Below, piece after piece: positions 809-62,260 of a stretch of 64,000 bases of DNA; within the stretch, counting starts at the first letter, position 1, and every line of letters starts with the position of its first letter. The stretch is from a virus: positions 1 through 64,000 of IMG/VR virus record IMGVR_UViG_3300030037_000006. The stretch is one strand, 5' to 3'. The position numbers and the translations under genes are program-made. The notes beneath the pieces are model-generated. The model was not told the origin of the DNA, did no database searches, and saw only the letters and a program-made list of their open reading frames with translations.

Positions 809-1702
809 TTAGGAATAAATTTTATTAATTACTGCATTTTTATAATTCTTATCCATCGTTTCTATCAATCTCTCCTTTAAATAAGGAAAAGTATTAAATA
901 AATCATATACAGTTGGCTTTATCTTTTCTTTCTTTTTAGGTATTGGGATAGTTTTTCCGTGAGCTCCTATGCTATTATCATTCCACATTCCAGCATTGAA
1001 TGTTACTTTAATTGGCTCTGTTATTGCGGGATGTCCATATGAACCACTAAGACTAATAGTCTCAGTATCGAAAACATAAGATCTTCCATTCTTATTACCA
1101 AGAGTAGCATCGCCGTCATAGTCACTACCGAAGATAACATTTGAAACAATGTACAAATTCTTAATATCAAATACTAATCTATTCAAAGTATTAGAAAGCT
1201 TCGGATGTATTACAATATCAAACTTAAATTTAATTTGTCTACTTAGAGATATATTATACTCAAATGTTAGATCTTCTATAAGATACGATTGCTTCATAAC
1301 ATCATAAGTTATGTAAGTATTTAAAGTATTTGATACTGATGTATTAAATAAGCTTATGAAATACTCAACTCCTCTAAATGCATCTAACAGATTTTCATTA
1401 ATGTCTTTAGTTTTATGTTTGAACTTAAATTCCATTCGTTGATACTTCTTGCCATAAGTTGCACAAGGTGATTGAACTTCGGAACTTTCATCGAAGCCAT
1501 GTTCTCTAAATAGATCTACCGCTTCTATGGTATTGCCATCAATGACTTCATTCATACTATTAGCTAGGGCTGAGCCGCTCATACCATTCAGTATATTGCC
1601 ATAAGACCTAGATTTTCCTATAGATCTACCTGCGTTTATTAAATGTTGCGTATGCTGAGCATATCCAGATGTATTAATTACTGGCCATGGAGAATGTATC
1701 AT
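809..1702 (-). CDS. hypothetical protein, C-terminal -IYS motif
   Basis: 297-aa ORF abutting the upstream gene; ends NKIYS. Confidence 0.65.
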   Translation of the reverse strand: MIHSPWPVINTSGYAQHTQHLINAGRSIGKSRSYGNILNGMSGSALANSMNEVIDGNTIEAVDLFREHGFDESSEVQSPCATYGKKYQRMEFKFKHKTKDINENLLDAFRGVEYFISLFNTSVSNTLNTYITYDVMKQSYLIEDLTFEYNISLSRQIKFKFDIVIHPKLSNTLNRLVFDIKNLYIVSNVIFGSDYDGDATLGNKNGRSYVFDTETISLSGSYGHPAITEPIKVTFNAGMWNDNSIGAHGKTIPIPKKKEKIKPTVYDLFNTFPYLKERLIETMDKNYKNAVINKIYS

Positions 1703-1704
1703 GA

Positions 1705-2697
1705 CTAGTTAGTATAACGTAGACGATCTTTAATACTTACTGACATTCCAATATTCATAACGAAATGACTCTTAGTAGAAGGATCACCTTCTTGGTCTTT
1801 AGGATGATTGATAGGCCAGTGATCTCTTGTAGGAGAAGCCACTGGAATTTTGATAGTATCACTACTGAACCTACTAAGATATCTTGTTGAATCAGAGAAT
1901 CCGATAGCAGCATATACATCCGGATCAATGTCATTAATGTCATCAATTCGAATTACTTTAAATTTGTTGTTAGTAAGTGACATGATCTTCTTATCAATTA
2001 CATCTGATTTACTTCCATGAGTGTTTGATGCTAAGTAGAGAATTTTCTTTCTGTCATCAAAGTCATACTCAGTTTTGAGTTCTTCTGCAGTTTCTTTTGA
2101 TACACCAGTGAGTTGTCTTACAGAATATAGATCATTTGCTTTGAGTGCTTCTCTAACTAAAGTGCCACTTACATGAGTAACTGAATCAGAGCCTGCATAC
2201 GGATCATATTCTCTTGAAATTGATTTGATTTCTATAGTAAGATTAAGTTCTTCTACCATGTGAGGTTTAAGAAGTTGTTGGTAACCTTCAACTCTATCTG
2301 ATCCACATAGAACTTGAACTACTTCATAGCCTTCATCACGAAGATCAGATGTAATGCCAGGAATGTATCCAGTAGCTACTTCAATAATATCTTCATTTTC
2401 AGGATAGATCTCCTCAAAGACTTTCTTCTGTGTTTCAAATGTGAATGGATTAGTTTCTTTATCTTCAGATGTTTTCTTACCACGTACGATTGCTACGATA
2501 ACTGGATGATCTGCTTGTTTAGCAATATGAACATGTCCTTTAGTAGGAGGTTGAAATCTTCCAAGAACTAAAGAAATTTTAGTTTCAGCTGGTGTAGTAT
2601 TGAATACATGAGTTTTCTTTTCTTTGATAATATCGAGTGATTCTTTTACTGACATATGTATTTCCTTTTTTAATATTCTTGCTATAGTATATACCAC
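1705..2697 (-). CDS. cytidylyltransferase-like (HIGH/HxGH) nucleotidyltransferase with C-terminal extension
   Basis: GRFQPPTKGH, NPF, CGSDR and SGTLVRE motifs typical of the T4-like phage cytidyltransferase-like family; true start probably MSVKES (~2656). Confidence 0.8.
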   Translation of the reverse strand: MVYTIARILKKEIHMSVKESLDIIKEKKTHVFNTTPAETKISLVLGRFQPPTKGHVHIAKQADHPVIVAIVRGKKTSEDKETNPFTFETQKKVFEEIYPENEDIIEVATGYIPGITSDLRDEGYEVVQVLCGSDRVEGYQQLLKPHMVEELNLTIEIKSISREYDPYAGSDSVTHVSGTLVREALKANDLYSVRQLTGVSKETAEELKTEYDFDDRKKILYLASNTHGSKSDVIDKKIMSLTNNKFKVIRIDDINDIDPDVYAAIGFSDSTRYLSRFSSDTIKIPVASPTRDHWPINHPKDQEGDPSTKSHFVMNIGMSVSIKDRLRYTN

Positions 2698-2751
2698 AAA
2701 TAAACAAATAACATTGTTTCTTATAACTAAAATACAACTTAATTTAAAAAT

Positions 2752-3861
2752 ATGTGGTTATACGAAAATAGAAATGATTTCATGATTCCTGAAGATTCAG
2801 TAGGATTCATATACGAAATCAGAAGAACTAACTTAATCGAATCAATAGTAGAACCTTACTTATACATTGGTAAGAAACAACTCTTTGGTAAAGGGAAAGG
2901 CAATAAAGGTCAAGAATCAAATTGGCGTGAATATTGGGGCTCGTCTAATTACTTATGGGATGACATTAAAAAGTATGGAGAACAAGATTTTGAAAGACAT
3001 ATATTAATGTTCTGTTATTCTTATTCTGAACTTAACTGGGAAGAGCTTAGAATGCAAATAGAACTTGGTACTCTTGCTTATAATGAAAGAGCTCCAATGG
3101 AAAAGAAGTACTACAACTTTAATGTCATTCAGAAACTTTACAAAGATAGATACTTTGAGAATACTGATACCGAAAGAGTAGAAGCTTATTTAGATGAAGA
3201 CTTCCAAAGAGACTATCCTTTATATCTTACTAATGGCAAAGAGAATATCGTAATTGAGTATGGATTATATGATATCAAAGAATGCTTAAGATATTACCCG
3301 AGTTATAGAATTGGTACCACTCCTAATATTAGATTAGATGGAATTAAATTTGCTCACCTTCCTTGTTATGAGTATAAGTATAAAGCTAGTGCAGATGGAT
3401 CTCTTTTAGAATCTTTCGAAGGATATGACATTGTTAGTAATGCAGTAGCTCAGTTTTTTGGTACAACTGAAGAATGTAATGATCAACTTCAAGCTGATGG
3501 ATGGAAGCGTGGTCCATTGCAATTAGAACTAGAAGATGTCGAGAAAGTGATTATGGCAACTAACTATAATACTTTACAGACTGAGAATGTAGTTGAATCT
3601 GTGTTTAAAGAAGGGCCTTATGTGAAGTTTGGTACCAAGCCTATAGAAGTAAAGGAAGGTAAAGAAGTTATATTTAGAGGCTATGCTAAAAAGTTTATTA
3701 TTGAAAGTGGATATGATATCAAAGAATCTTGGATTACTCGAGTTCTTAAGAAATCTAGAATTGGATCATGGCAAGATCTTACTCCTACTTACACAAAGAA
3801 AGCCAGAGAAATTAACCCTGACCTTCTAGTAAAACGAACTAATAAAATTAAGAGTACATAG
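2752..3861 (+). CDS. GIY-YIG-like nuclease domain protein
   Basis: GFIY...YIGKK...ESNWREYWGS...FERHIL...YYN N-terminal domain. Confidence 0.65.
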   Translation: MWLYENRNDFMIPEDSVGFIYEIRRTNLIESIVEPYLYIGKKQLFGKGKGNKGQESNWREYWGSSNYLWDDIKKYGEQDFERHILMFCYSYSELNWEELRMQIELGTLAYNERAPMEKKYYNFNVIQKLYKDRYFENTDTERVEAYLDEDFQRDYPLYLTNGKENIVIEYGLYDIKECLRYYPSYRIGTTPNIRLDGIKFAHLPCYEYKYKASADGSLLESFEGYDIVSNAVAQFFGTTEECNDQLQADGWKRGPLQLELEDVEKVIMATNYNTLQTENVVESVFKEGPYVKFGTKPIEVKEGKEVIFRGYAKKFIIESGYDIKESWITRVLKKSRIGSWQDLTPTYTKKAREINPDLLVKRTNKIKST

Positions 3862-4345
3862 CTTCGTAACGTTTTCTCTCTAGGATTTCTTCTAGAGAGA
3901 TTCCTTTATCAAAGATTCTGATGTTAGTACTATCATGATAGTGTGGCATTCTGGTTTTAGTTGTTTTATCTATCTCATATTTATCAAACAATAATGTTTG
4001 GACACCAAGTGTAGATGCAAAGTATTTGCTAGATACTTTAACACGCTCAGCCACAGCTTGTATCTGACTATCGGATAAGCTTCCAAATTCTCTCATTACT
4101 ATCTTGCATCGTATACGATTATCTAATAGCTTAAAGAACAATGACTTCTTTGATTGAAGTTGTTCTGTTCTGAAGCCTGTATAGTTGTTGAACTCTATCC
4201 ACTTACCTATGTATCCAAGAGATCTAAGCTTACAGAATTGATTGTTTGATATAAATTTACTTCCATACTTATTAGGAAACTTTTTAGACTCGATTTTAAC
4301 TCTGCCTAAGTTGTCTAGATTAACGAACTTAAACATTAGCGCCAC
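3848..4345 (-). CDS. hypothetical protein, C-terminal -MYS motif
   Basis: 165-aa ORF coupled to the upstream gene; ends EAMYS. Confidence 0.65.
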   Translation of the reverse strand: MALMFKFVNLDNLGRVKIESKKFPNKYGSKFISNNQFCKLRSLGYIGKWIEFNNYTGFRTEQLQSKKSLFFKLLDNRIRCKIVMREFGSLSDSQIQAVAERVKVSSKYFASTLGVQTLLFDKYEIDKTTKTRMPHYHDSTNIRIFDKGISLEEILERKRYEAMYS

Positions 4346-4560: not shown

Positions 4561-4895
4561 TATGAAATCTCCGCTAATTTTAAATAAAATGTTTCTTTTT
4601 CAACTTCATCAGATCCATAACATGGAACTTCAAGTCCTATGTGATGTAAGAATACTTCACTAATCAAACGTTCTCTTACACAAGTATCAGTCCAAGTATT
4701 GTTGATAATTTCTTCAGTAAGATCAAGATCTAACTCACATTCTATAATATCCATGAAGTGAAACTTAGTTCCGTAATGATCATTGATGTATTGTGCTACT
4801 TCTTTGACGTTTTCCATTGGACCGGACTTGCCAACTCTTAAAATTATATCGGGCATAATGAGTTCCTTTATATTAATGTTGATATACAATACCAC
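4560..4895 (-). CDS. hypothetical protein
   Basis: ORF; true start likely MPDIIL (4856) after AAGGA RBS. Confidence 0.6.
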   Translation of the reverse strand: MVLYININIKELIMPDIILRVGKSGPMENVKEVAQYINDHYGTKFHFMDIIECELDLDLTEEIINNTWTDTCVRERLISEVFLHHIGLEVPCYGSDEVEKETFYLKLAEIS

Positions 4896-4914
4896 ACATT
4901 AACATAAAGTACAA
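4886..4914 (-). promoter_or_regulatory. sigma70-type early promoter (TTGTAC-N17-TATTGT), representative of a family
   Basis: Same -35/-10 with an exactly 17-nt spacer at 775-803, 5372-5400, 7918-7946, 11547-11575, 14565-14593, 17946-17974, 21952-21980 (all minus) and 24523-24551, 60888-60916, 61749-61777 (plus). Confidence 0.8.
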
Positions 4915-9707: not shown

Positions 9708-10052
9708 TTAACTGTACATTTGACTAGTTATTAATTGTAGTTTCTGATCTTCAGTAAGCAAGTGTGAAATGTTAATAGCTTTTGCTACAACGAATCTTCC
9801 TTGCATTTCTTGTTCGTGTGTTGATATAAACTTAACACCGTTTTCGGTAATTGACAACTCCTTTACTAACAAAGATGGAATTTTCTTTCTAGAGTTATCT
9901 GCGTTGCGAGTCTTTACCGTTGTTACAGCGTACGATGCTAAGTTGCTAGATGATTTATATCCGCCTTTGATCATGCATATTACATCGTTTTCTTTGATAA
10001 CATTACCGATGTAGTCAAAGCTTTCTAATTCTGGTTTTATTTTCTTAGTCAT
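9708..10052 (-). CDS. hypothetical protein, C-terminal -MYS motif
   Basis: 114-aa ORF, AGGA RBS; ends SQMYS. Confidence 0.65.
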   Translation of the reverse strand: MTKKIKPELESFDYIGNVIKENDVICMIKGGYKSSSNLASYAVTTVKTRNADNSRKKIPSLLVKELSITENGVKFISTHEQEMQGRFVVAKAINISHLLTEDQKLQLITSQMYS

Positions 10053-10176: not shown

Positions 10177-10455
10177 TTATTTGTAAACGTAATCTTTACA
10201 GAGGCTGCATTGGTTATACATTTTAGGTGTACCATCAGCATTGAAATGAAGAATTCTTTCATGATCTTCTGAATGATAAGCTTGCATAGTTCTAACTCTA
10301 TATCTTCCATCAAAAGTATGATCGTTTTCTCTACATATTTTATCACGTTTATTTGAATGTATAGTTAATAGAGACATACTGATTATCCAAATAACTATAA
10401 AAATTAGTATACCTCTATTAAATCCTTTGTTACTGTCTGGATCACTAATGCCCAT
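10177..10455 (-). CDS. small membrane protein with Cys/His motif
   Basis: N-terminal TM helix GILIFIVIWIISMSLL; C...H and CSLC; ends YVYK. Confidence 0.6.
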   Translation of the reverse strand: MGISDPDSNKGFNRGILIFIVIWIISMSLLTIHSNKRDKICRENDHTFDGRYRVRTMQAYHSEDHERILHFNADGTPKMYNQCSLCKDYVYK

Positions 10456-11511: not shown

Positions 11512-11638
11512 ATTAAATTGCTTCCGTTAATTAAATTGATAAGTCTAGTATATACCAACTAAAAGTAATGTACAATCCTTTTACAATAAAAATGCCCAAT
11601 CTTTCGAAAGGGCATTCATAAAACTATTTAGCTAGAAA

Positions 11639-12691
11639 CTAGTATTCGTCTTCACCATAAATTTCAGGTGTCCACTCAATATTATCTTCCAAGAAATCTC
11701 TAAGATCAGAAGCAAACTCGCTATCTAGATAAATCTCCATTTGATCTCCGCGTCCAATTGGAGTGTCAATTTCAACTTCAATTGCGTTAGGTTCATCTTC
11801 ATCAAACTCTTTAATGAATCCTACTGTAATTGTTAGCTGTTCACCTGATTCTAATTGGTCTGCTGGAATAGTGTAGATATTATCTACTTGATAACTTAGA
11901 TCATCACCAGGAGTATGGCTTGTCATGTTCTCAAATCTAAATCTAGTTTGAGTTTCACCACCTACATAGTCACTTATTGCATCGGACACTTCTGCAAACT
12001 TATCCCAGGTTTCTTTAAGACCTTCTTTAGTTTGAGCTGCATGTTTAACAGCTTCATCACTGATTTCTTCAACAGCATTAGGATCTTCTTTAATCTGAAG
12101 AGCATTACCGTAAATATCTTTCATTCCACCGACAACACTTTCATCACTAAGATTAAATTCTTGAACTTTAGGTCCACGACTTTGAGCGACTTCAATAGCT
12201 GAATTGTATTTAGTTAAGAATAACTCGATAGCATCTTCATCAGCAAGTTCAATGCGGTATTTGTATTCAGTTACATCTTCTTTTACAAAAACTGTCTTAA
12301 CTTTATCTAAATCTTTTTTAATAGATTCTACCTTTTTATCAAAGGCTTTATTTGTCTTAACTGATTTTAAACTTTCTACTTTAGTTGTTATAGCAGATAA
12401 ATTCAATGATAATTTCTCATCAGGTTTCCTTGATTCTTTAAGAAGATTATCACCTTTAAGAAGTTCAGTAAACTTAGCTAAGTTTTCTTCTGTTCTAAAG
12501 CAGAAGTTAAAAAGTATTTTTACTATGTAATCTTCTTCATCAAAGTTAGCTCGAGCAATTTCAAGAGCTTTATCTCCATTAGTACCAGACACTTGAACTG
12601 AATGTTTAAAGTCTTTCATCGGGTGCTTAGTGTATTCTTCTTTCATAATTTGAGTCTTAGTTGACTCATATAGTTTCATAAATTTTGACAT
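11639..12691 (-). CDS. putative internal head protein (MSKFxKLYES leader family)
   Basis: Starts MSKFMKLYESTKTQIMKE; several internal (L/F/I)xE sites (LKES, VKED, IKED, LKET). Confidence 0.7.
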   Translation of the reverse strand: MSKFMKLYESTKTQIMKEEYTKHPMKDFKHSVQVSGTNGDKALEIARANFDEEDYIVKILFNFCFRTEENLAKFTELLKGDNLLKESRKPDEKLSLNLSAITTKVESLKSVKTNKAFDKKVESIKKDLDKVKTVFVKEDVTEYKYRIELADEDAIELFLTKYNSAIEVAQSRGPKVQEFNLSDESVVGGMKDIYGNALQIKEDPNAVEEISDEAVKHAAQTKEGLKETWDKFAEVSDAISDYVGGETQTRFRFENMTSHTPGDDLSYQVDNIYTIPADQLESGEQLTITVGFIKEFDEDEPNAIEVEIDTPIGRGDQMEIYLDSEFASDLRDFLEDNIEWTPEIYGEDEY

Positions 12692-12692
12692 G

Positions 12693-13244
12693 TTATTTAG
12701 CTGCTACTGAAGATTTATCATCTACTGCATAAACGACTCTGCCTCCACCACTGTTAGACCATTGCAAATCCATATTACTAAGTAATACGTATCTCTTAGC
12801 AAATTCCTCATCGTCAGTATTATACAAATGCCAACCATGCTCAGCGTGCTTATTTTCATCTGTCATATTACCAGAGAAGCCGCCCATCTTATATATTGCG
12901 AATTGGCCATCTTTAGACAATTTTGATTTATCGATATCATATATGTTACCGTCAAACCAATCTGAATCTAAGAATTCGTTTGCGTCTGCTTCGCTGGTAA
13001 ATTCTAAAGGGCGTCCAAACTTGAAAGCTACTTCAGCAGGTTGAAACACGTGTGTCAATTTAGGACCATTATGCAGATGAGCAAAACGTCCAGGTTTTAC
13101 TGGCGCAATAAAGTAACCGCGCTCTCGCCAGGTCTTACCGTTTTCGTTATAATCAGGTGCTAGTGCTGAAACTTCATCAGAGTATGTTACGTTCTCGTTT
13201 AGAGCTTGTTTAGTTGACTCGTATAATTTCATAAATTTTGACAT
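12693..13244 (-). CDS. putative internal head protein (MSKFxKLYES leader family)
   Basis: Starts MSKFMKLYESTKQALNE; late box GATAAATA at 13276-13283. Confidence 0.7.
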   Translation of the reverse strand: MSKFMKLYESTKQALNENVTYSDEVSALAPDYNENGKTWRERGYFIAPVKPGRFAHLHNGPKLTHVFQPAEVAFKFGRPLEFTSEADANEFLDSDWFDGNIYDIDKSKLSKDGQFAIYKMGGFSGNMTDENKHAEHGWHLYNTDDEEFAKRYVLLSNMDLQWSNSGGGRVVYAVDDKSSVAAK

Positions 13245-13274
13245 TATTTCTCTTTTGTTTAAATCGTATTTTAT

Positions 13275-13715
13275 CTATTTATCTAGAATAGTGAGATTTA
13301 CTTGATCGAATAGCTTCTCTATATCTTCTAAAGTTTGTACGCTATCTGGTACATCGATTTCAACAATTTTGAAACCTTTATCTATTAAGTCACCTACGTT
13401 TAAACCAAGTTGGCCATGTTGAGCAAATTGATACTTACCGTTGACATAATTATAGCGCTCTCTAAGTTCAACTCTTTCTAAATCAGTGTAGTTGTTATAG
13501 CCGTAAGAACCAATCTTACCTATGAATTGAATATCATCATCTAGATGAGACTCATCATTTCCTAAAATCCATTGACCAGTTTGTGGTAAACGACTTTCTT
13601 CCGTAGGAGAATATTTATTAAGATAGTCATCCTTTTCTAGGTATTGTAAATGTTCAGAACTCTCGGATACTAGCCGAGCTTTAGTTGATTCGTATAGTTT
13701 TTTAAATTTTGACAT
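13275..13715 (-). CDS. putative internal head protein (MSKFxKLYES leader family)
   Basis: Starts MSKFKKLYESTKARLVSE; AAGGA RBS. Confidence 0.7.
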   Translation of the reverse strand: MSKFKKLYESTKARLVSESSEHLQYLEKDDYLNKYSPTEESRLPQTGQWILGNDESHLDDDIQFIGKIGSYGYNNYTDLERVELRERYNYVNGKYQFAQHGQLGLNVGDLIDKGFKIVEIDVPDSVQTLEDIEKLFDQVNLTILDK

Positions 13716-13726
13716 GTTATTCCTTA

Positions 13727-14185
13727 TTAGTGCATAGCCATGGGAACATGACCAGTAGGGTTGTAGTTATCATAATGAGCAAGAACAGCTTGAGTTGCAC
13801 CTTCTAAATCATTAGGCATTGCCATCTTATTCTCTTTACCTTTATTGAATGCTTTGCTATTAGATCTTAATTCTTTAGTAGCCCATAGTTCACGGGATCC
13901 CATTGACAAATTTCCTTTATTCTCAGAATAAGTATACACTAATCTTTTACCTTCATCAAATTTGAATTCAACTGAATCAGGATTTTCAACAAAGTCATAG
14001 AAGTTTCCAGCAGACTTTACTGTTAGATACATATCAAATAATCCATCAATGTTTTTTACAAACTCACCAAGCTTGGCGGGTTTATTAGATTTCATAGATT
14101 TATATACTTCATAATCGCGGGGTGCTTCTTCTTCTTTGAAGAATTGAGCTTTAGTTGATTCATACAACTTATTAAATTTTGACAT
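13727..14185 (-). CDS. putative internal head protein (MSKFxKLYES leader family)
   Basis: Starts MSKFNKLYESTKAQFFKE; late box at 14214-14221. Confidence 0.7.
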   Translation of the reverse strand: MSKFNKLYESTKAQFFKEEEAPRDYEVYKSMKSNKPAKLGEFVKNIDGLFDMYLTVKSAGNFYDFVENPDSVEFKFDEGKRLVYTYSENKGNLSMGSRELWATKELRSNSKAFNKGKENKMAMPNDLEGATQAVLAHYDNYNPTGHVPMAMH

Positions 14186-14212
14186 AATGTTATGTGTCTC
14201 TTTGTATTTTAT

Positions 14213-14530
14213 CTATTTATCTAAGGAGACGTTTCTCAATTGTAAAATTTCGTCCAATTGGTACTGATCAGGTTCTGCTGAAATAGGAAGAATTAAGTCG
14301 TCTCCTTCCATGTATGATCCAGCATCCCAATACATATCAGTAAATATCTGGTCTCGTTCTAGTATGTTAAATATTTTAGCATAGGCGCCTCTAAATTTAT
14401 TCTGAGTGCCACTTTTAGATACAGTATCAGGGTTCTTAATATTTTTAATGCGAAAAGTTATACCTGTATTAGCGTCAGATTCAGTGAATTGAGCTTTAGT
14501 TGATTCATACAACTTTATAAATTTTGACAT
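14213..14530 (-). CDS. putative internal head protein (MSKFxKLYES leader family)
   Basis: Starts MSKFIKLYESTKAQFTE; late box at 14554-14561. Confidence 0.7.
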   Translation of the reverse strand: MSKFIKLYESTKAQFTESDANTGITFRIKNIKNPDTVSKSGTQNKFRGAYAKIFNILERDQIFTDMYWDAGSYMEGDDLILPISAEPDQYQLDEILQLRNVSLDK

Positions 14531-14578: not shown

Positions 14579-14625
14579 ATATGATAAGTACAACACAAAA
14601 GGCCTAAATAAATAGACCTTTTATT
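14579..14625 (-). repeat. terminator + early promoter cassette, copy 2
   Basis: Near-identical to 7932-7977. Confidence 0.85.
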
Positions 14626-14633
14626 AAGTGAGC

Positions 14634-14879
14634 CTACATATCTTTAAATAAAGTATAGGACTTATCTTCATGTAGATCATATAGTCTATTGAATTTATCT
14701 ACATTTCTAGAAACAAGTGATTTAACACGGAGAGTATCTGTATCTCTTATAGCAACATGGAGTAACTTGTCACCTGCCTTATATTCTTCGCCAAATAAAT
14801 CCGTTGTATTTAGCAATCGTGATATCACTTCAGCAGTTAAACTCTTTGATGTTTCTAGTTGTTCTTCTATAGTATGCAT
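14634..14879 (-). CDS. hypothetical protein
   Basis: 81-aa ORF at the distal end of the tRNA cluster. Confidence 0.55.
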   Translation of the reverse strand: MHTIEEQLETSKSLTAEVISRLLNTTDLFGEEYKAGDKLLHVAIRDTDTLRVKSLVSRNVDKFNRLYDLHEDKSYTLFKDM

Positions 14880-14913
14880 AATTAAACTCGTTTCTTATGT
14901 TGAATGTAAAAAA

Positions 14914-14988
14914 TGGAGCCTGCTGAGAATTCCGAGATCTCAACCCCCGACTTACAAAATCGGCGCTCTGCCTTTGAGCTAAGCAGGC
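14914..14988 (-). tRNA. tRNA-Thr(TGT), atypical T-arm
   Basis: Acceptor GCCTGCT/AGCAGGC + TCCA; anticodon arm CCGAT-TTTGTAA-GTCGG; T-loop CTCGGAA. Confidence 0.85.
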
Positions 14989-15001
14989 TCTTATAATAAA
15001 T

Positions 15002-15079
15002 TGGTCGGAGTGGGAGGATTTTAACCTCCGGTTTCCGCATCCCAAATGCGGCGGATTAAACAGACTATCCTACACTCCG
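15002..15079 (-). tRNA. tRNA-Pro(TGG)
   Basis: CGGAGTG/CACTCCG + ACCA; CCGCA-TTTGGGA-TGCGG; T-loop TTAAAAT. Confidence 0.9.
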
Positions 15080-15086
15080 ATAAAAC

Positions 15087-15163
15087 TGGAGAGTGATGTC
15101 AGATTCGAACTGACGCATGGAGGATTTGCAATCGACCGCCTTAACCAACTTGGCTAATCACTC
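15087..15163 (-). tRNA. tRNA-Cys(GCA)
   Basis: GAGTGAT/ATCACTC + TCCA; loop TTGCAAA; anticodon stem has two mismatches. Confidence 0.85.
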
Positions 15164-15172
15164 TTTTAAAAC

Positions 15173-15250
15173 TGGTAGCGGGAGAAGGATTCGAACCTCC
15201 GACCTCTTGGTTATGAGCCAAGTGAGCTGACCTAACTGCTCCATCCCGCA
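15173..15250 (-). tRNA. tRNA-Met(CAT), initiator-like
   Basis: TGCGGGA/TCCCGCT with 1:72 mismatch + ACCA; CTTGG-CTCATAA-CCAAG. Confidence 0.9.
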
Positions 15251-15259
15251 ATAAAAACT

Positions 15260-15336
15260 TGGTTGTGATACGAGGACTTGAACCTCGGACAATTCGGATA
15301 TGAACCGAGCGCTCTAACCAACTGAGCTATATCACA
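15260..15336 (-). tRNA. tRNA-CAT (elongator Met or Ile2)
   Basis: TGTGATA/TATCACA + ACCA; loop TTCATAT. Confidence 0.85.
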
Positions 15337-15344
15337 AACTAAAA

Positions 15345-15416
15345 CTACTCCACCTGGGTACGATCCAAGAATGGGTGGATCAAAACCACCTGTGTTACCA
15401 ATTACACCATAGAGTA
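15345..15416 (-). tRNA. tRNA-Gln(TTG), no encoded CCA
   Basis: TACTCTA/TGGAGTA; GGTGG-TTTTGAT-CCACC; T-loop ATCGTAC. Confidence 0.85.
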
Positions 15417-15420
15417 AAAG

Positions 15421-15500
15421 TGTGCCGAGTAGGACTCGAACCTACACGTCTAAGACCAGGGATTTACAGTCCCCTAAGCGACCAATTGCTCAATCAGCAC
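15421..15500 (-). tRNA. tRNA-Tyr(GTA)
   Basis: GTGCTGA/TCGGCAC; GGGGA-CTGTAAA-TCCCT; variable arm GTC-TTA-GAC. Confidence 0.88.
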
Positions 15501-15539
15501 AGTGTTTGGTTAATTGTTGCCATGGGAAACCAATCCATG

Positions 15540-15606
15540 TTGTAACCACGACTTGAACGTGGACTCACTGTTCGAACAGCAGCTCTTGCCAGTTGAGCTA
15601 TTACAA
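15540..15606 (-). ncRNA. tRNA-like RNA with shortened anticodon arm
   Basis: TTGTAA/TTACAA acceptor, intact D-arm (GCTC/GAGC) and T-arm (CCACG-TTCAAGT-CGTGG), but the anticodon arm is only 14 nt (GCTGTTCGAACAGT). Confidence 0.7.
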
Positions 15607-15617
15607 AATCTTAAAAA

Positions 15618-15770
15618 TGGTGCTGGCCACAGGATTCGAACCTGCACATTAGCCCGGTTTTCAAAAAGTACCTTTCTGCAGTTAATACTAATCTACTCAG
15701 CAATGACCGTATATGTTACGTTCCCTCGTTAGCTATCCTACATGTAGGGACTACATCAGTAACAACCAGC
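15618..15770 (-). ncRNA. 153-nt RNA with tRNA-like acceptor stem, T-arm and CCA
   Basis: 5' GCTGGTT pairs with GGCCAGC + ACCA; T-arm GCAGG-TTCGAAT-CCTGT; ~120 nt non-tRNA interior. Confidence 0.75.
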
Positions 15771-15844
15771 TTATTAAATGTTAGTCTTTCCTATCAGTCA
15801 ACTAATTTCACATCATTTAGAAGTCAGATCTATTAGATTTAAAG

Positions 15845-15916
15845 TACGAATGCTCGGATTTGAACCGAGAAGTCCTGGGTGGAAGCCAGGCATTTTACCG
15901 TTGAAATTACATTCGC
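15845..15916 (-). tRNA. tRNA-Gly(TCC)
   Basis: GCGAATG/CATTCGT; CCTGG-CTTCCAC-CCAGG. Confidence 0.88.
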
Positions 15917-15955
15917 ATGTGTTTGCTAGTCTTTCCTAACAGTCATTATACTAAG

Positions 15956-16028
15956 CATCTCCAACGAGACTCGAACTCGTGTTGCCGGGATGAAAACCCG
16001 GTGTTCTAACCAACTGAACTATAGAGAC
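15956..16028 (-). tRNA. tRNA-Glu(TTC)
   Basis: GTCTCTA/TGGAGAT; CCGGG-TTTTCAT-CCCGG. Confidence 0.9.
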
Positions 16029-16031
16029 ATG

Positions 16032-16125
16032 TGGCAGAAGAGGTCGGGATCGAACCGACATGCCCATTTAAACTGACAAACGAGTTAGCAACCCGTGACG
16101 ATACCAAATTTCGCTTTACTCTTCT
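16032..16125 (-). tRNA. tRNA-Ser(GCT)
   Basis: AGAAGAG/CTCTTCT + GCCA; ACGGG-TTGCTAA-CTCGT; long variable arm. Confidence 0.88.
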
Positions 16126-16244
16126 ACATTTGCTAGTCTTTCCTAGCAGTCATTGAATACTATCTGCGTTGAAAGGCGCCGCCTTCCATTGATAAGCTCA
16201 GTAGATAGTAACCACTTCGCGAATCAATTTGGGATAATACTAAG

Positions 16245-16317
16245 CGAGCCATATCGGATTTGAACCGATGTTGCAGGATAGACAATCCCGAGTCCTAACC
16301 AACTAGACGAATGGCCC
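16245..16317 (-). tRNA. tRNA-Asp(GTC)
   Basis: GGGCCAT/ATGGCTC; CGGGA-TTGTCTA-TCCTG. Confidence 0.88.
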
Positions 16318-16446
16318 TTATCCTACTTTTTCTAACTGATGGTAGGAGCATCATTGTCACCATGGTCGACTTTAGGTTCTAATCAGGACCAACGGAGTCT
16401 AACAGTTTTTAAACTGGAGGGAATCGAAGGCGACCCTTTGTTAAAG

Positions 16447-16535
16447 TGGAGAGACAGGGATTCGAACCCTGGGATGCATTGCTACACCGCTAGTTTTCAA
16501 GACTAGATCTTTAAGCCGGACTCAGACACCTCTCC
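16447..16535 (-). tRNA. tRNA-Ser(TGA)
   Basis: GGAGAGG/TCTCTCC; CTAGT-CTTGAAA-ACTAG; long variable arm. Confidence 0.9.
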
Positions 16536-16932
16536 AAAAATATGCTAGTCTTTCCTAACAGTCATTCGATCAAATATTATGCACACTTTAAGAGCGTATA
16601 AACTTTAGCAGGCCTACTATGCATGTTCATCCTACCGCTTCTAAGCATTACCGAAGTAATTTCATCTCTAACCTTCTAAGTCACATTTGATCAAAACTAG
16701 TCTTTCCTAGCTGTCATTAAATTATCTACTACGTGATTGAAATAAATCTACTAGCCGTACGGAAATCTTCATGGATAACTACTTGCCGGGATAATTTAAA
16801 TTTTATTACTATCACAATATACAGAACATTTGGCGGGTATGCGTAACATACTGTAAACTACTTTCGATCAAGTTATAACCACAAAGCAGGTGGCTTAGTC
16901 TACGATAGCTGGGATAGTAATAAAAGTCAATA

Positions 16933-17042
16933 GTTATAATAGAGTACTCACAGAAGGATTCGAACCTCCGAGGTAATTACTTCCTACCCGCAAGCGGCGG
17001 GCTACTTTAAACCACTCAGCCATGCTAGCAGTCTATTATAAC
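16933..17042 (-). ncRNA. degenerate type-II tRNA-like RNA inside an 11-bp outer stem
   Basis: D-loop GAGTGGTTTAA, T-arm GGAGG-TTCGAAT-CCTTC, variable arm, non-canonical anticodon loop CCGCTTG; flanks GTTATAATAGA/TCTATTATAAC. Confidence 0.65.
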
Positions 17043-17046
17043 AAAG

Positions 17047-17119
17047 CTCCGCGGGCAGGGTACGATCCTACAACCTACTCATTAACAGTGAGTCGAACTA
17101 CCAATTGTTCTACCGCGGA
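17047..17119 (-). tRNA. tRNA-Asn(GTT)
   Basis: TCCGCGG/CCGCGGA; ACTCA-CTGTTAA-TGAGT; T-loop ATCGTAC. Confidence 0.9.
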
Positions 17120-17122
17120 ATT

Positions 17123-17791
17123 TTAAAATTTCATTTTTCTTCCTTTAATCCAACCTTTACTTAAATAATCTTCTAGATCAGTTTTATGTATAGATTTACT
17201 AACCTTTTCTTCAAGGCTATGAATCCAACATTTACCGAATTGAGAATTACCAGATCCTTTTTGAGCCTTCGATGTTACTAAGCCAATCTTTCTCTTAGTT
17301 TCATCTGTATGCTGTTTACCTAACCAGAAAGTATTTCCCTTAAGACCTTCAGATATATTTAAGCACCATTGCTCGTATTTACCTGATTCTTTAAGAACGT
17401 TTACTAATTCTGCTCCACATAAAAGATTCTGTTTTCCTCTGCCATCTTGACCATTTAATACATTACCATTATCGTCATAATATAAATTACCACCTGCTTC
17501 CATAGACTCATGCCAATTGGCACCTTGTCCACCTACACAGCGATTATAAGTATCAGATCGACATACAAAATCAAAGTCTACTAACTTAGCTTCTAATAAA
17601 TCCATTTCATCTGAATCGTTACATTCGAATAAAATTTCTCTCTCAAAGAACTTAGTTCCGAATAATTTAATATCTTCACGAAGTTTAGTACCAGAACCTA
17701 GATAACCATCATCTAGCTTTTCTGTTTTATGCTGACCTATATAGATCTTGTTGTTAATTGTATTGGTTGTTTTATAAATGATGTAGTGCAT
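17123..17791 (-). CDS. free-standing GIY-YIG (Seg-like) homing endonuclease
   Basis: YIIYKTTNTINNKIYIGQH...YLGSG...FEREIL; NUMOD3-like GKQHTDETKRKI; lies beside tRNAs, as T4 segB does. Confidence 0.88.
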   Translation of the reverse strand: MHYIIYKTTNTINNKIYIGQHKTEKLDDGYLGSGTKLREDIKLFGTKFFEREILFECNDSDEMDLLEAKLVDFDFVCRSDTYNRCVGGQGANWHESMEAGGNLYYDDNGNVLNGQDGRGKQNLLCGAELVNVLKESGKYEQWCLNISEGLKGNTFWLGKQHTDETKRKIGLVTSKAQKGSGNSQFGKCWIHSLEEKVSKSIHKTDLEDYLSKGWIKGRKMKF

Positions 17792-19755: not shown

Positions 19756-20406
19756 TTATGAGTAAAGCTTGGATGCCATGATACTTAACAAAATTTTATC
19801 CGCATCTCCATCGCTTACTGAATCTTCTCCATATATGTTTTTTACATCTACACAGATATATCTAGGTGCATTGAATTCATCTAAGCCGTCATAGCGTTCC
19901 ATCTTAAAGTACTTTTTATTAGGTTGTCTTAAGTGTTCCAGTGACTCAGAATCCTTACCACTAATCAATATAGCATCTTTAATATCCATGGGTTCCACAG
20001 CTTTGTATAACAAGATCTTTTGTTTAGTTGCAGCAATGCTACCGAAATGGTTTACCCACCATTCTACATTTTCCTGAGTTCTAGCCGCAGCATTCTTTGC
20101 AAATATAGGAGTAGGATTATCCGCAGATCTCATTCTGATATGAATAGGATAGTCATTGAGAATATATGTATTACCTTTAAGAGCTCTCATCTTTACATAC
20201 ACTTTAAACTTAAGCTCATAAAGTGTTAGTCCTACAAACAATGTCATAGTATTGCCTGCTAAGAAGTGGAAGAATAAATCATAACGAGTCTCATTATAAA
20301 AGAAGTATGAGAATAATAAAGTAGATGTCAGTAATAATATTAATGTGCTAATATATTCTTTAGCGTTGAGCTCATCTTCTAATCTATTTCTGTGGTGTTT
20401 TGTCAT
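19756..20406 (-). CDS. membrane protein, C-terminal -LYS motif
   Basis: Two N-terminal TM segments; ends SKLYS. Confidence 0.65.
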   Translation of the reverse strand: MTKHHRNRLEDELNAKEYISTLILLLTSTLLFSYFFYNETRYDLFFHFLAGNTMTLFVGLTLYELKFKVYVKMRALKGNTYILNDYPIHIRMRSADNPTPIFAKNAAARTQENVEWWVNHFGSIAATKQKILLYKAVEPMDIKDAILISGKDSESLEHLRQPNKKYFKMERYDGLDEFNAPRYICVDVKNIYGEDSVSDGDADKILLSIMASKLYS

Positions 20407-20684: not shown

Positions 20685-21000
20685 GAGCTGCCGCTACTGA
20701 ATCTTCTATAGGACCAAATGTCTTGTCCCATTTTTCTTCAAATAACTTATTGGCTTCTTTGCTAATAGATTTAGCATAAGATCTGTCATACAAAGCTTTA
20801 AGAAATTTTGAAGCATCTAAAGTTGTAATCTGAATGCCGTTAATTTTTATATCTACTGCCCAATCATTTGCTTCTTTCAAAGTTTCGTAATCGTCTGGGT
20901 CTATGTTACCAATTCTTTCCATAATAATATGACTCATCATGCTAGAGTTATTGTGAACTATCGTATTTTTTTCTTCATTCCATTTTTCGTTTTTATGCAT
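20629..21000 (-). CDS. hypothetical protein
   Basis: 123-aa ORF in a coupled operon. Confidence 0.6.
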   Translation of the reverse strand: MHKNEKWNEEKNTIVHNNSSMMSHIIMERIGNIDPDDYETLKEANDWAVDIKINGIQITTLDASKFLKALYDRSYAKSISKEANKLFEEKWDKTFGPIEDSVAAARDMLSSTFINEWEIDNEA

Positions 21001-21337
21001 ACAGCCTCTTTGTTTGAACTAATTGTTCTGCGTCTTTCATATTGTCGACATCTAATATTTCAATATCATATTTAGCATTATTAATAATACTCAACAGGAA
21101 GGAGTCAGTTGCAGGACTAGATACTATCTCTAGAATTGGAGAAGCATTTAGAAGGTTTACACTAACTTCGTCTCTAAAATAGTTAATTACTTCTGATCCT
21201 GGTTGTAATGATAGTTCGGTAATTACTCTTCTGAATCTATTAATACTTATACGACCAGGATAAGTTATAGTAAAGAACTTATCGACATAGTCCGGCAAAT
21301 TGTTAAATGAATCCATTTTGAGATAAGCGGGTGCCAT
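20993..21337 (-). CDS. hypothetical protein, C-terminal -LYA motif
   Basis: 114-aa ORF; ends KRLYA. Confidence 0.6.
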   Translation of the reverse strand: MAPAYLKMDSFNNLPDYVDKFFTITYPGRISINRFRRVITELSLQPGSEVINYFRDEVSVNLLNASPILEIVSSPATDSFLLSIINNAKYDIEILDVDNMKDAEQLVQTKRLYA

Positions 21338-21924: not shown

Positions 21925-21982
21925 ATTGCGATTCCCTTAGTTGTTTTACTTAAGATATACCAAGATTTATAGTTGTACAATC

Positions 21983-46895: not shown

Positions 46896-48437
46896 ATGCA
46901 AACTGCACATTTAACTGAACAATACCAAGGTGATGTTCTTAAGAAATGGGCTCCCGTTATTAACGGCGGAGCCTCAAAAATCAAAGACCGTAGAACATTG
47001 CTTAACACTGCGCTCGTAATGGAATCAACTGAAGCAGCTTCTGCTTCACAAACGCGCCAACAGCGTCTTAACGAAGCATGGACAACTGGTTCTATGTCAG
47101 CTGGACCTGGTGCAGTATCTGGTTCTACTCCAATTGGTGGTGGTGCTCTTGGTGCTACTGACGATCTCGGTATCGGTGACTCACGTATCCCTTCTGTAAT
47201 CGTTCCAATGCTCCGCAGAGTTTTCCCAGCGCTTATCGCTCACGAAACTATGTCAGTACAACCTATGGCAACGTCTATTAGTCGTGCATACGCTCTCCGT
47301 CTCCTTTATGGTGACAATGCTGGTGGAGTAACTGCACCTGGTACTGGTATCGAAGCTGGTTACAATACTCTTGTTCCTGGTCACTCTGGTAATGCCGGTG
47401 CAGAAGATCGTTCTGGTAATTACAACATTGAAGACCTCGATGCTGATGGTGATAAAATCTCTGGTATTGATACTACTGGTGATGGTGCTGAAGATCTTTT
47501 AACAACTGATGAAGTTGCATTCGGTCGTCCTTTGGATGCTACTGCTGCTGCCGGTCTTAACGATCAGACTTTCCTCTCTTCTTATCAAGGTACTAATGAC
47601 TTCACTGGTCAAGGTGCTGCTCTCGGTGCTTCAGAGTACTGGACAGTTGGTACTGATATGCCAATGCTTGCAATGAAAATTGTTAGTGGTGTAGTTGAAG
47701 CTAAGACACGTAAACTTGCTGCTACTTGGTCTAACGAAGTTGCTGAAGACATGCTCAACATGCAAGGTATTGATATTAACGCTGAAATGGTTAATGGCCT
47801 TTCAAATCAAGTTGGTCAAGACATTGACAGACAGTGTCTCACTGAAATGAACTCTGCTGCAATTGCTGGTAAACTCGGTCGTACTAAGTCAGTATGGAAT
47901 GCTGCTCTTTCAGACGGACGTAACCAGAACGAACGTATCGGAACTCTCTTTACACAAGTTCTTCTCGCTGCTCGTAAGATTGCAATTAACACACGAGTTG
48001 GTGCTGGTAACTTCGCTATCGCTGATAACACAGTAACATCATTGCTTGAAAGAGTTGGTGAGTTTGGACTTGATGGTTCTGCTGCTGGTATCGATGGTAA
48101 AGCTGGTATCTCACGTGCAGGAACACTCCGTCAAGGTAAGATTAAACTCTTTACTGATACATTCGGTGGTGATTTCATTAACGGCCGTGGATATGTTATG
48201 CTCGGTTATAAAGGTACTGATAAGTATGATTCAGGTATTGCTTACTGTCCATACGTACCGATTGAACTTACTTCAATCGCTGCTGCTCATGATGACTTCA
48301 ATCCAAGAGTTGGTGTCCGTACACGTTACGGAATGCTTGACTCATTACAAGGTGCTTCGAATTACTATCATTACGTAATGGTTGAAGGTCTTAACGATTC
48401 TACAGCTGGTGATGACGGAAGAACATTCTTGTTCTAG
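46896..48437 (+). CDS. major capsid protein (T4 gp23-like)
   Basis: KWAPVI, RRVFPALIA, VQPM, AKTRKLAATWS, YCPYVP, FNPRVGVRTRYG; predicted maturation site RLNE/A. Confidence 0.97.
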   Translation: MQTAHLTEQYQGDVLKKWAPVINGGASKIKDRRTLLNTALVMESTEAASASQTRQQRLNEAWTTGSMSAGPGAVSGSTPIGGGALGATDDLGIGDSRIPSVIVPMLRRVFPALIAHETMSVQPMATSISRAYALRLLYGDNAGGVTAPGTGIEAGYNTLVPGHSGNAGAEDRSGNYNIEDLDADGDKISGIDTTGDGAEDLLTTDEVAFGRPLDATAAAGLNDQTFLSSYQGTNDFTGQGAALGASEYWTVGTDMPMLAMKIVSGVVEAKTRKLAATWSNEVAEDMLNMQGIDINAEMVNGLSNQVGQDIDRQCLTEMNSAAIAGKLGRTKSVWNAALSDGRNQNERIGTLFTQVLLAARKIAINTRVGAGNFAIADNTVTSLLERVGEFGLDGSAAGIDGKAGISRAGTLRQGKIKLFTDTFGGDFINGRGYVMLGYKGTDKYDSGIAYCPYVPIELTSIAAAHDDFNPRVGVRTRYGMLDSLQGASNYYHYVMVEGLNDSTAGDDGRTFLF

Positions 48438-48506: not shown

Positions 48507-48562
48507 ATGTTTAAAGCTTATAGTTGTTTCTTACTAGAAAAACAACTAAACAGAAGTTTAAC

Positions 48563-49114
48563 ATGAGCGAAGAAAAAAAGTCTGAAAAGAAAGCAGACGA
48601 TACTATATTTTATACAACATATCTAACAGCAGATCAGACAGCTAAAGATAATAAAGAAACCTCTGATAATAAATTCCTTCCTAATGGAGAGCTTAGACAG
48701 AGACGCAAAAGAACATCAAAGAATTCTAGAATTTACGTTGATCCGCATGAGCTAATGGATGAACTACTTGAATTTAAACGTACAGACATTATATCTGAAA
48801 ACCTTGGTAGCATGTTTATCAAGATGGCTATTAGATTCACTTCATCATCTAAGTTTAATGGTTACTCATGGCGAGATGAATTCATTTCTTGTGCACTTAT
48901 AAGAATTGTGAAGTACATTGATAAATTTGATCCTGAAAGAGAAAATTGTAATCCGTTTGCATACATATCTAAGATCATTGAGCACGAAGTAATTAAAATT
49001 ATCAATAAAGAAAAGAAAATAATTGATACAAACAATAGATTGCGCACAGCTGTATGGACAGAAATTGAAACAGAAAATGGTTTAGAACATGTAGATCTAA
49101 ATGAAGAAGGATAA
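48563..49114 (+). CDS. late transcription sigma factor (T4 gp55-like)
   Basis: YVD..EL, LGSMFIKMA..F...KFNGYSWRDEFIS, FDPE...NPFAYISKI. Confidence 0.88.
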   Translation: MSEEKKSEKKADDTIFYTTYLTADQTAKDNKETSDNKFLPNGELRQRRKRTSKNSRIYVDPHELMDELLEFKRTDIISENLGSMFIKMAIRFTSSSKFNGYSWRDEFISCALIRIVKYIDKFDPERENCNPFAYISKIIEHEVIKIINKEKKIIDTNNRLRTAVWTEIETENGLEHVDLNEEG

Positions 49115-59835: not shown

Positions 59836-59840
59836 CATAA

Positions 59841-60957: not shown

Positions 60958-61320
60958 ATGTCTACATCATCAGGTCAAATGACAGACCCTCAGTTCGGTC
61001 TATTTTTGTTTGAACGTTATATTGCTCGAATGAAAATGAAATATTGGAATAGTAGCAGTTGCAGTTCTCTTATACCCAGTACCTCGCCTCCTAGTATGAA
61101 AGAACTCGATAGTCTATATGAAGCAGCTGGCATTACTTTAAAAGATTGGTTCGTATCATCAGATGATACTACTACTAAGTATTTTGAATTATTAAACAAG
61201 CATTATAACAGTTGCATTGATACGTGGTATGAATCATATGAAATTCATCAACGTAATGTAAATGAATATGTTAAATCTAAATATGAATTTGGAGTAGAAG
61301 CTATGTACGGAGATCTTTAA
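60958..61320 (+). CDS. hypothetical protein, paralog of the next gene
   Basis: TLKDWF...ELLNK...IDTWYESY.IH...EAMYGD vs TFEDWW...ELNK...IDIWYPDY.IH...HSLYGD. Confidence 0.7.
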   Translation: MSTSSGQMTDPQFGLFLFERYIARMKMKYWNSSSCSSLIPSTSPPSMKELDSLYEAAGITLKDWFVSSDDTTTKYFELLNKHYNSCIDTWYESYEIHQRNVNEYVKSKYEFGVEAMYGDL

Positions 61321-61736
61321 TGAGTGTAGAATGGTCATATACATATAACAAAAACTCTGCTAAAGCTTATGCATGTGATTTGATAATGTCTACACCAGGT
61401 CAGACTATTATTAACAATCATCAAGACGTACAAAAATATAAAGATTCTATGACATTTGAAGATTGGTGGAATCCTGGTCATTTCGAGTGGAGTCACCTAT
61501 GGGAGTTAAACAAACAAGAAGCAGCTCATATAGATATTTGGTATCCTGACTATCTAATTCATTGCAGAGAAGATTCAATAACTCCACTTAATAAAATGGT
61601 ATTTGAAGTTCATTCTCTTTATGGAGATTCATCTAGGGATGAGTTAAACTTAACGTATTACGCAGGTAAGACTCCTTATGACAAATCGATAGTTTACTGT
61701 CCATACATTCCAATAACATTATCAGATAAAAAATAA
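61320..61736 (+). CDS. hypothetical protein with a major-capsid-like C-terminal peptide
   Basis: Ends YYAGKTPYDKSIVYCPYIPITLSDKK. Confidence 0.7.
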   Translation: MSVEWSYTYNKNSAKAYACDLIMSTPGQTIINNHQDVQKYKDSMTFEDWWNPGHFEWSHLWELNKQEAAHIDIWYPDYLIHCREDSITPLNKMVFEVHSLYGDSSRDELNLTYYAGKTPYDKSIVYCPYIPITLSDKK

Positions 61737-61806
61737 TTCCATTTAGAGGTGTACGATTGTTTTTAGTGTAGTATCTTATACTATCAATTAAAAAAAGGAC
61801 TGTATC

Positions 61807-62013
61807 ATGGAAGACTATATCAAACAAATAATATTGAAATATACTGATCGTTACAAAGCATCGAATGGTAAGATTGATAATGCGTTTGCTAACGGTAAAA
61901 GAGTTGCTTGGTCACAAGCTATTAACATTCTTATTAACACTGCACCTGATAATCTCAGAGAATCTCTTAATAAATTTGCAGATGAACATTTCGACAAAGA
62001 AGACAATGTCTAA
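61807..62013 (+). CDS. hypothetical protein
   Basis: AAGGA RBS, promoter 61749-61777. Confidence 0.6.
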   Translation: MEDYIKQIILKYTDRYKASNGKIDNAFANGKRVAWSQAINILINTAPDNLRESLNKFADEHFDKEDNV

Positions 62014-62260
62014 GTTATTAATTGGACAAATCAGAGAAACTCCTGAAACTTCAGATCCACCTCCGTTAAATAAAGGGTTTACTTACAAAATAACTAAGCT
62101 CTTACCTAAGTCAGCAGCTGGACATAAAATAAGAGTAGAAATTCTCATAGGCAATCATAACTGGCCCACTGGAAAAACATGGGACTTTGAAAGAATAATT
62201 ATGTACGAAGACAAAGTCATCTCAGAAACTGAATACTTAACCAAAGCTTTATATAAATAA
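62006..62260 (+). CDS. hypothetical protein (84 aa), C-terminal -LYK
   Basis: Likely start MSKLLIG at 62006, overlapping the upstream stop. Confidence 0.55.
   Translation: MSKLLIGQIRETPETSDPPPLNKGFTYKITKLLPKSAAGHKIRVEILIGNHNWPTGKTWDFERIIMYEDKVISETEYLTKALYK

Follow-up and report, generated by a model that had tools for sequence, protein, structure and literature searches.

Why do small, apparently unrelated proteins of one phage end in the same three residues? The question is raised by a 64,000-nucleotide stretch of DNA (the window), which is the first 64 kb of the 90,761-bp virus record IMGVR_UViG_3300030037_000006 (G000; G+C 33%). A sequence-only reading of the window had picked out nine proteins ending in [LIMV]-Y-[SAK]-stop, here called the tyrosine tail, and had proposed that this ending docks its carriers (the tagged proteins) on one common partner. 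On balance, we read the tail as a lineage-specific C-terminal address or docking peptide carried by eight (nine with 10177-10455) unrelated, mostly basic ORFans of probably early operons. Genes are named by their positions (Table 1).

A tyrosine ending is enriched at C-termini

Genes were called by a greedy longest-open reading frame (ORF) rule, which has no effect on C-termini, and this gave 112 ORFs of at least 50 amino acids on the whole record, with the tRNA region left out. Ten of them end in [LIMV]-Y-[SAK], nine within the window and the tenth (65977-66420) outside it, compared with 0.25 expected by composition and 0.21 by internal tripeptide frequency (nominal P = 2e-14). The nine C-termini of the sequence-only reading, and its near match EAMYGDL, all translate as it gave them and at the coordinates it gave; the excess over chance that it described also stands, although its estimate of about one chance ending was too high against the 0.2-0.25 found here. 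The terminal residue is Ser in six endings, Ala in two and Lys in two, and tyrosine by itself is enriched at the penultimate position (16 observed versus 5.0 expected in the 112 ORFs, P = 4e-5). A motif search without a prior, which combined every anchor residue, placed in turn at the last five positions, with greedy residue sets at two others, returned exactly [MLIV]-Y-[SKA] (p = 2.3e-13). None of 5,535 null sets, assembled from pseudo-termini at random internal positions of the same proteins, matched that value (best null, 1.5e-12). The enrichment across the record persists against these controls, and the shared tyrosine ending is confirmed. Extrapolation of the null tail puts the family-wise p at ~1e-5 to 1e-4 per genome, which alone is not overwhelming given the very many windows surveyed, so evidence independent of the tripeptide was sought.

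Similarity extends about 16 residues from the free end

When the nine in-window tails are anchored at the C-terminus and compared without gaps, they are more alike at positions -4 to -16 than sets of nine drawn at random from untagged tails (z = 3.3-4.5, P = 0.0003-0.0015), and no likeness is seen at -17 to -30 (P = 0.84). The likeness at -4 to -16 persists against untagged genes of the same putatively early blocks and after removal of one member of a paralog pair (both described below), and it rises once the atypical 10177-10455 is dropped. A profile built from the core eight tails (10177-10455 and 65977-66420 excluded) has acidic residues at -14/-13, Ala or Ile at -12, Tyr or Leu at -11, aliphatic residues at -8/-7 and Lys or Arg at -5/-4, followed by Met, Leu or Ile at -3, Tyr at -2, Ser or Ala (once Lys) at -1 and the free carboxylate. 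Hydrophobic positions recur at -15, -11, -8/-7 and -3, and Gly and Pro together are depleted in the last 18 residues of tagged proteins (P = 0.008). An amphipathic helix had been predicted before most of the tails. The Gly/Pro depletion and the hydrophobic periodicity agree with that prediction, whereas the hydrophobic moment shows no significant increase over other C-termini (P = 0.20). The tail is probably a helical, Gly/Pro-poor stretch of ~16 residues. A membrane-targeting helix was considered and rejected, given the acidic start of the tail and a hydrophobic moment that is not elevated.

The signal lies at the protein level

A DNA-level signal at gene ends, be it the late promoter TATAAATA, a terminator or a ribosome-binding site, could produce a common ending as a by-product, as could chance picked up post hoc. 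The final codons of 61865-62260, TAT AAA TAA (Tyr-Lys-stop, within ALYK-stop), do contain the T4 late-promoter word TATAAATA at 62252-62259 (+), and VYK-stop of 10177-10455 spells TACAAATA, one mismatch off that word; the stop codon is TAA in all ten tagged genes compared with 68% genome-wide (P ~0.02), and the number of windows surveyed favours chance. However, the codons vary at all three positions, as the sequence-only reading had said: Tyr is TAT in five endings and TAC in five, Ser is TCN in four and AGY in two, and six codons are used at -3. The 39 nt upstream of the tail show no greater likeness than those of other genes (P = 0.10), the motif occurs in non-selected (spurious) ORFs at the chance rate (2/922), a Shine-Dalgarno-like word is found in only one of the ten tails, and the gap to the next gene ranges from -8 to >1,000 nt. 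The varied codons, the chance rate in spurious ORFs, the variable gaps and the scarcity of Shine-Dalgarno words led us to reject a DNA repeat or promoter at gene ends, and chance is opposed by the null sets, none of which matches the score, and by features outside the selection that also separate the tagged set. We regard this explanation as largely refuted and very improbable. The TATAAATA word at 62252-62259 stands 11 nt ahead of the next start codon, too near for a ribosome-binding site on a transcript from there. Several features of a generic C-terminal linear motif are found here, namely a fixed register with the free end, unrelated carriers and a signal at the protein rather than the DNA level.

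Tagged genes are confined to sigma70-type blocks

Within blocks of the sigma70 (TTGTAC) type, 10 of 40 genes are tagged, compared with none of the 72 other genes (Fisher P = 1.5e-5); the earlier statement that nearly all tagged genes lie in TTGTAC-promoter operons in fact holds for all ten at the level of these blocks. From the likeness of the TTGTAC sites to sigma70 and T4 early promoters, we infer that they are promoters with early timing. A generic sigma70 scan found sites to be no commoner than in shuffles. The tagged proteins are also basic (median isoelectric point (pI) 8.1 versus 5.2, P = 0.004).

The carriers appear to be unrelated ORFans

Neither Pfam nor PHROG gave a match to any tagged protein, in agreement with the earlier claim that none is structural, and the same libraries searched with tagged proteins and their operon neighbours gave only cytidylyltransferase-like, SegE-like GIY-YIG and methyltransferase matches. 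In a collection of 5.8 billion proteins, 809-1702 and 25016-25471 retrieved only themselves, and exhaustive HMMER with 809-1702 found repeat-type partial matches and no full-length relative. The ESM Atlas held no match above chance for 19756-20406, a tblastn search of GenBank phages with 19756-20406 and 3848-4345 gave none, and neither did blastp of the tagged proteins against 88 sheath-centred loci (1.06 Mb) and five whole related phages. By these searches, all nine in-window tagged proteins are ORFans. The tenth ending, in 65977-66420, is a different case: orthologs in the related phages G003 and G002 end in ...LSGLTYNY and ...AALTYSF, so the ending is not kept. Because the orthologs lack it and 0.2-0.25 chance matches are expected, we treat this ending as a chance match whose Tyr would belong to the fold.

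If the tagged proteins were cryptic paralogs, or shared a self-contained structural C-terminal helix (used, for example, in self-association), the tail would need no external reader. All-vs-all blastp returned a single weak tagged pair, the adjacent genes 24540-25016 and 25016-25471 (E = 0.017; Smith-Waterman z = 3.9), which are probable tandem paralogs. Early phage ORFans diverge fast, the tailed genes of one relative (G004, below) form tandem arrays and are similar in length, as expected of paralogs, and the hydrophobic spacing of the tail suits helix-helix packing. Against this, the bodies of the tagged proteins show no excess similarity (mean Smith-Waterman z of 0.05 between tagged bodies versus 0.02 between tagged and untagged ones, P = 0.37), the likeness ends at about -17, and the carriers range from 92 to 297 amino acids with genes spread over at least five operons; an internal packing helix, moreover, needs no exact register with the free end. 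We consider paralogy or a purely structural helix unlikely. The tagged proteins are not detectable paralogs, the adjacent pair excepted, and to that extent their earlier description as unrelated holds. In the adjacent pair the tail is held in register at ~21% overall identity, which is the only conservation-type evidence.

Related phages carry other tails

The window encodes T4-type portal, gp23 major capsid protein, large terminase and tail sheath, as well as a family-B DNA polymerase, a gp46/47-like nuclease, a gp55-like late sigma factor and a Cpn60-type chaperonin. Its gp23 capsid protein is only ~30% identical at best to those of GenBank phages, and single-protein scans of IMG/VR and JGI metagenomes found no close relatives of the phage. 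Because CheckV estimates the record to be 33% complete and a protein database puts its proteins on a 255,591-bp contig, the record covers roughly a third of an uncultured T4-like jumbo phage. TTGTAC-N15-17-TATAnT and GTTTACA-N17-TATACT (one site) occur as promoter-like sequences, and ribosome-binding sites are of the AGGAG type; by both signs the host would be a bacterium, probably one of low G+C.

Sheath alignment reached relatives at 43-55% identity, and these were counted with the same gene caller. Tyrosine tails number two in 1,207 ORFs of the 88 sheath-centred loci (2.7 expected), one in 660 ORFs of G001, G003, G004 and G005 together (1.45 expected) and none in 447 ORFs of G002 (0.84 expected). 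A hidden Markov model of the tail found no further C-terminal instance in all relatives and T4. T4 itself has four such endings in 267 ORFs (0.6 expected). By these counts the tyrosine tail is lineage-specific, with a true C-terminal background at or below the composition estimate. The four T4 endings belong to MotB, DenV, gp31 and Frd (P = 0.003) and are probably due to chance or fold; penultimate Tyr is not enriched there (15 versus 11.6 expected). In the related phages, penultimate Tyr is depleted, with 14 observed versus ~46 expected in the five whole relatives (10 versus ~30 in G001, G003, G004 and G005, 4 versus 16 in G002) and 28 versus 54 in the sheath loci.

Two relatives have distinct tails of their own. 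In G002 (IMGVR_UViG_3300005259_000074, 262 kb, loci L120-L133), 91 of 447 ORFs end in [LMI]-E-x-[LIV] (nominal P = 2e-141), with conserved Asp or Glu at -11, Ala at -10, Leu or Ile at -8 and Lys at -5; the carriers fall into 82 BLAST clusters, are mostly 60-150 amino acids long, and in many C-x-C directly precedes the tail (for example, L121:11000-11883 (-)). The G002 tail overlaps a Shine-Dalgarno word in 50 of the 91 genes, which lends some weight to a DNA-level signal, but Glu at -3 is encoded by GAA in 37, and the conserved upstream positions cannot be a ribosome-binding site. In G004 (IMGVR_UViG_3300032285_004054, 218 kb, loci L109-L119), 13 small proteins end in ...[ST]FGG[LF][LI]DV[IL], and 12 of these (113-146 amino acids) are encoded in two tandem arrays (contig positions 7368-9572 and 195589-199008); the tail is strongly conserved, whereas most of the bodies show no detectable likeness (mean z = 1.4). 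An unbiased motif finder applied to G003, G001 and T4 gave no significant C-terminal motif. Because G002 and G004 carry tails of their own, lineage-specific C-terminal tails on many unrelated small proteins recur in this clade. The window's tail is a smaller and looser case: as in G002 and G004, unrelated small, probably early ORFans share one lineage-specific ending, but this one differs from theirs in sequence, has far fewer carriers (8-9 in roughly a third of the genome) and is less conserved.

What might read the tail

Peptides whose carboxylate forms part of the epitope, among them the ssrA tag, HbYX, PDZ ligands, sul20 and clamp tails, characteristically stand in exact register with the free end on carriers that are unrelated. 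The tyrosine tail shows this hallmark, and for this reason we favour a docking or address tail for one reader. Because the motif never shifts relative to the end, one reader protein would grip both the terminal hydrophobic-Tyr-small-carboxylate and the hydrophobic side of the helix, and the span of ~16 residues suggests that the helix would lie in a groove of the reader, anchored by that terminus. Such a reader would handle all tagged proteins as one class, for recruitment, localization or timed removal. As proposed by the sequence-only reading, a protein-level C-terminal signal common to unrelated proteins and probably read by one partner is the best reading of the likeness to -16, the restriction to blocks, the lack of paralogy, the lack of a DNA repeat and the tails of two relatives. 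The partner itself was not found; the existence of a reader, its being single and its role are what we infer from the tail.

A phage precedent is found in T4, where the tails of gp43, gp55 and gp33 dock on the gp45 sliding clamp. Read directly, these tails are SLDFLFG, SLDFLYEAND and TLDFLL ([ST]LDFL[FYL]). The T4 arrangement is like the present one in placing a short hydrophobic or aromatic C-terminal peptide on unrelated proteins for one hub reader, and unlike it in sequence, in having only three carriers and in that all three have a known replication or transcription role, whereas the carriers here are ORFans. The clamp is an unlikely reader here: no tyrosine tail is present on the homologs of clamp clients (gp55-like 48524-49114 and RNase H-like 38843-39790), and LDFL has no counterpart in the tagged tails.

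The tail also has the form of the HbYX motif, a match that the sequence-only reading had noted, and docking on the alpha ring of a 20S proteasome was considered as a further explanation. The formal match is perfect, with hydrophobic-Tyr-X at the extreme C-terminus in ten of ten endings (by construction of the motif) and in exact register with the carboxylate, as in PAN, Rpt2/3/5 and PA200 (GQYL in Mpa and Bpa), and 'penultimate tyrosine' is tied in the literature almost only to proteasome activators and p97. HbYX activators are ring-shaped, however, whereas the tagged proteins are small (92-297 amino acids), unrelated and have no AAA+ or activator domain. The record (33% complete) has no proteasome-family gene, the host is indicated to be bacterial by sigma70-like promoters and by ribosome-binding sites of the AGGAG type, and bacterial 20S proteasomes are reported to be limited to Actinobacteria (PMC4254994); the G+C of this phage is 33%. 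The proteasome idea is unsupported, and we hold it to be extremely improbable.

A third possibility is that the tail acts as a C-degron, whose hydrophobic-Tyr-X end a host AAA+ protease would read so as to remove early proteins as infection proceeds; the closest known case is Lon. Lon does recognize degrons at the C-terminus: its N-domain makes contact with sul20 at Y19 and H20, and degradation is poor when both residues are changed to Ala (Y19A/H20A; PMC8087443). Yersinia Lon degrons end in x-[LI]-[LIV]-H, all three last residues contribute and His is preferred; the ends of SulA (...YLYH) and Smg (...GLYH), with L-Y where the tail has [LIMV]-Y, resemble the tyrosine tail in their hydrophobic or aromatic -3 and -2 positions (PMC11986505). 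In LarA, a transferable C-degron of five residues comes after a helix (PMC10665427). The tagged genes sit in probably early operons. On the other hand, the defining terminal His is missing, being replaced by Ser, Ala or Lys in all ten endings; charged terminal residues are disfavoured, and Ser was not among the residues tested (PMC11986505). Degrons are usually short and unstructured, whereas the likeness here is helix-like and spans ~16 residues, and host proteases are conserved, yet related phages bear wholly different tails. Because the tail changes completely between related phages, a co-evolving phage reader fits better than a conserved host protease. A Lon-type degron is the nearest bacterial analogue; as an explanation of the tail we find it doubtful. 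Recognition by ClpX through C-motif-1 (ssrA-like ...LAA) was rejected, as the last two residues are not both small and non-polar, with Tyr at -2 in ten of ten.

The capsid-targeting sequence of T4 internal proteins is likewise a phage-wide address peptide on unrelated proteins, but it is N-terminal, carried by late genes and cleaved on maturation, whereas the tyrosine tail is C-terminal and found in sigma70-type blocks. This phage has an N-terminal leader family of the capsid-targeting kind, seen at 11639-14530 (-) in the window and at 79458-80150 (+) on the full record, in which unrelated proteins have their first 18-30 residues in common (blastp 55-78% identity, N-terminus only). All-vs-all blastp places no tagged protein in this family, as the sequence-only reading had said. 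Capsid targeting was rejected, as the two sets do not overlap and the tagged genes lie outside structural blocks.

Because tails differ completely between related phages, we lean towards a reader that is encoded by the phage itself, either by one of the ORFans or in the two thirds of the genome that the record lacks. Searches of the record (about one third of the genome) for proteasome-family (PF00227), ClpP, PDZ and gp45 clamp genes gave no match, and a comparative search for a reader gene present in G002 and G004 but not in G003 or T4 yielded two candidates, neither of them in this record.

Several points weigh against a docking or address tail. The motif was defined post hoc, among very many windows surveyed, and the blocks of the Fisher test were delimited by the analyst, also post hoc; the label 'early' derives solely from promoter likeness. 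The set is small and conservation upstream of the last three residues is loose, and two of the ten endings are probably outside the class (65977-66420 and the outlier 10177-10455). The searches found no ortholog for any of the nine in-window proteins, and thus purifying selection on the tail across genomes is not shown. A single-sequence AlphaFold2 model of 20993-21337 was unusable (predicted local-distance difference test score 33), so the helix is deduced from composition and periodicity only. Finally, no partner was identified.

Features and neighbouring genes

For 24540-25016, the TTG at 24540 falls inside the promoter, so an ATG at 24585 is the more likely start. The near match 60958-61320 has a paralog in the next gene, 61320-61736 (+) (34% identity over 61 amino acids), the C-terminal end of which resembles a 22-residue stretch of the major capsid protein 46896-48437 (+) (55% identity, E = 3e-4). 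The window has 14 tRNA genes. Those clustered at 14600-17120 (-) include two tRNA-Met, one tRNA-Tyr and three tRNA-Ser, which correspond to the commonest residues of the tail, M-Y-S; this may be coincidence. Adjoining the cluster, as in T4, is a SegB-like GIY-YIG homing endonuclease (17123-17791 (-), 40% identical to T4 SegB along its whole length). Beyond the window, two adjacent ORFs (record positions 70044-71528 and 71528-72544 (+)) encode NrdA, the first matching the N-terminal part of the T4 protein (40% identity) and the second its C-terminal part (39%).

Table 1 Tagged genes, related endings and promoter-like sites. Positions are those of the window, which coincide with those of the record.
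Feature	Position	Strand	Length (aa)	C-terminus	Remarks
Tagged ORFan	809-1702	-	297	...VINKIYS	pI 8.3; no Pfam or PHROG family
Tagged ORFan	3848-4345	-	165	...RYEAMYS	pI 9.8; last gene of operon headed by TTGTAC promoter-like site 4886-4914
Tagged ORFan	9708-10052	-	114	...ITSQMYS	pI 9.2
Doubtful member	10177-10455	-	92	...CSLCKDYVYK	One predicted membrane segment; tail not helix-like
Tagged ORFan	19756-20406	-	216	...IMASKLYS	
Tagged ORFan	20993-21337	-	114	...QTKRLYA	Acidic (pI 4.7)
Tagged ORFan	24540-25016	+		...LKYRMYS	Probable tandem paralog of 25016-25471
Tagged ORFan	25016-25471	+	151	...NMYNIYA	
Tagged ORFan	61865-62260	+	131 from 61865 or 84 from 62006	...LTKALYK	pI 9.7
Near match, uncounted	60958-61320	+		...VEAMYGDL	EAMY of 3848-4345 shifted two residues inward
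Tenth ending	65977-66420			LVYS	Outside window; conserved core gene, non-helical tail
Promoter-like site, TTGTAC-N-TATAT	21952-21980	-			Heads operon of 20993-21337 and 19756-20406
Similar promoter-like site	4886-4914	-			
Similar promoter-like site	11547-11575	-			
Similar promoter-like site	24523-24551	+			
Similar promoter-like site	61749-61777	+			GTGTAC

Implications for T4-like jumbo phages

The presence of such tags on many genes in relatives suggests a recurrent, fast-diversifying tag-reader arrangement rather than a curiosity of a single genome. We put forward, tentatively and as a possibility only, that T4-like jumbo phages of this clade label many fast-evolving early accessory proteins with a lineage-specific tail that is read by a co-evolving reader. 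We found no printed description of such phage-wide C-terminal tails in the searchable literature, and, if true, the arrangement would be an undescribed layer of phage proteome organization, in the form of a common adaptor, a gate or a timed-clearance machine. The early genes of large phages are mostly ORFans that offer no handle, and a common tail would supply one: it groups ORFans into a functional class and provides a peptide bait for capturing the reader. The reader, in turn, would be a control point acting on many accessory proteins together.

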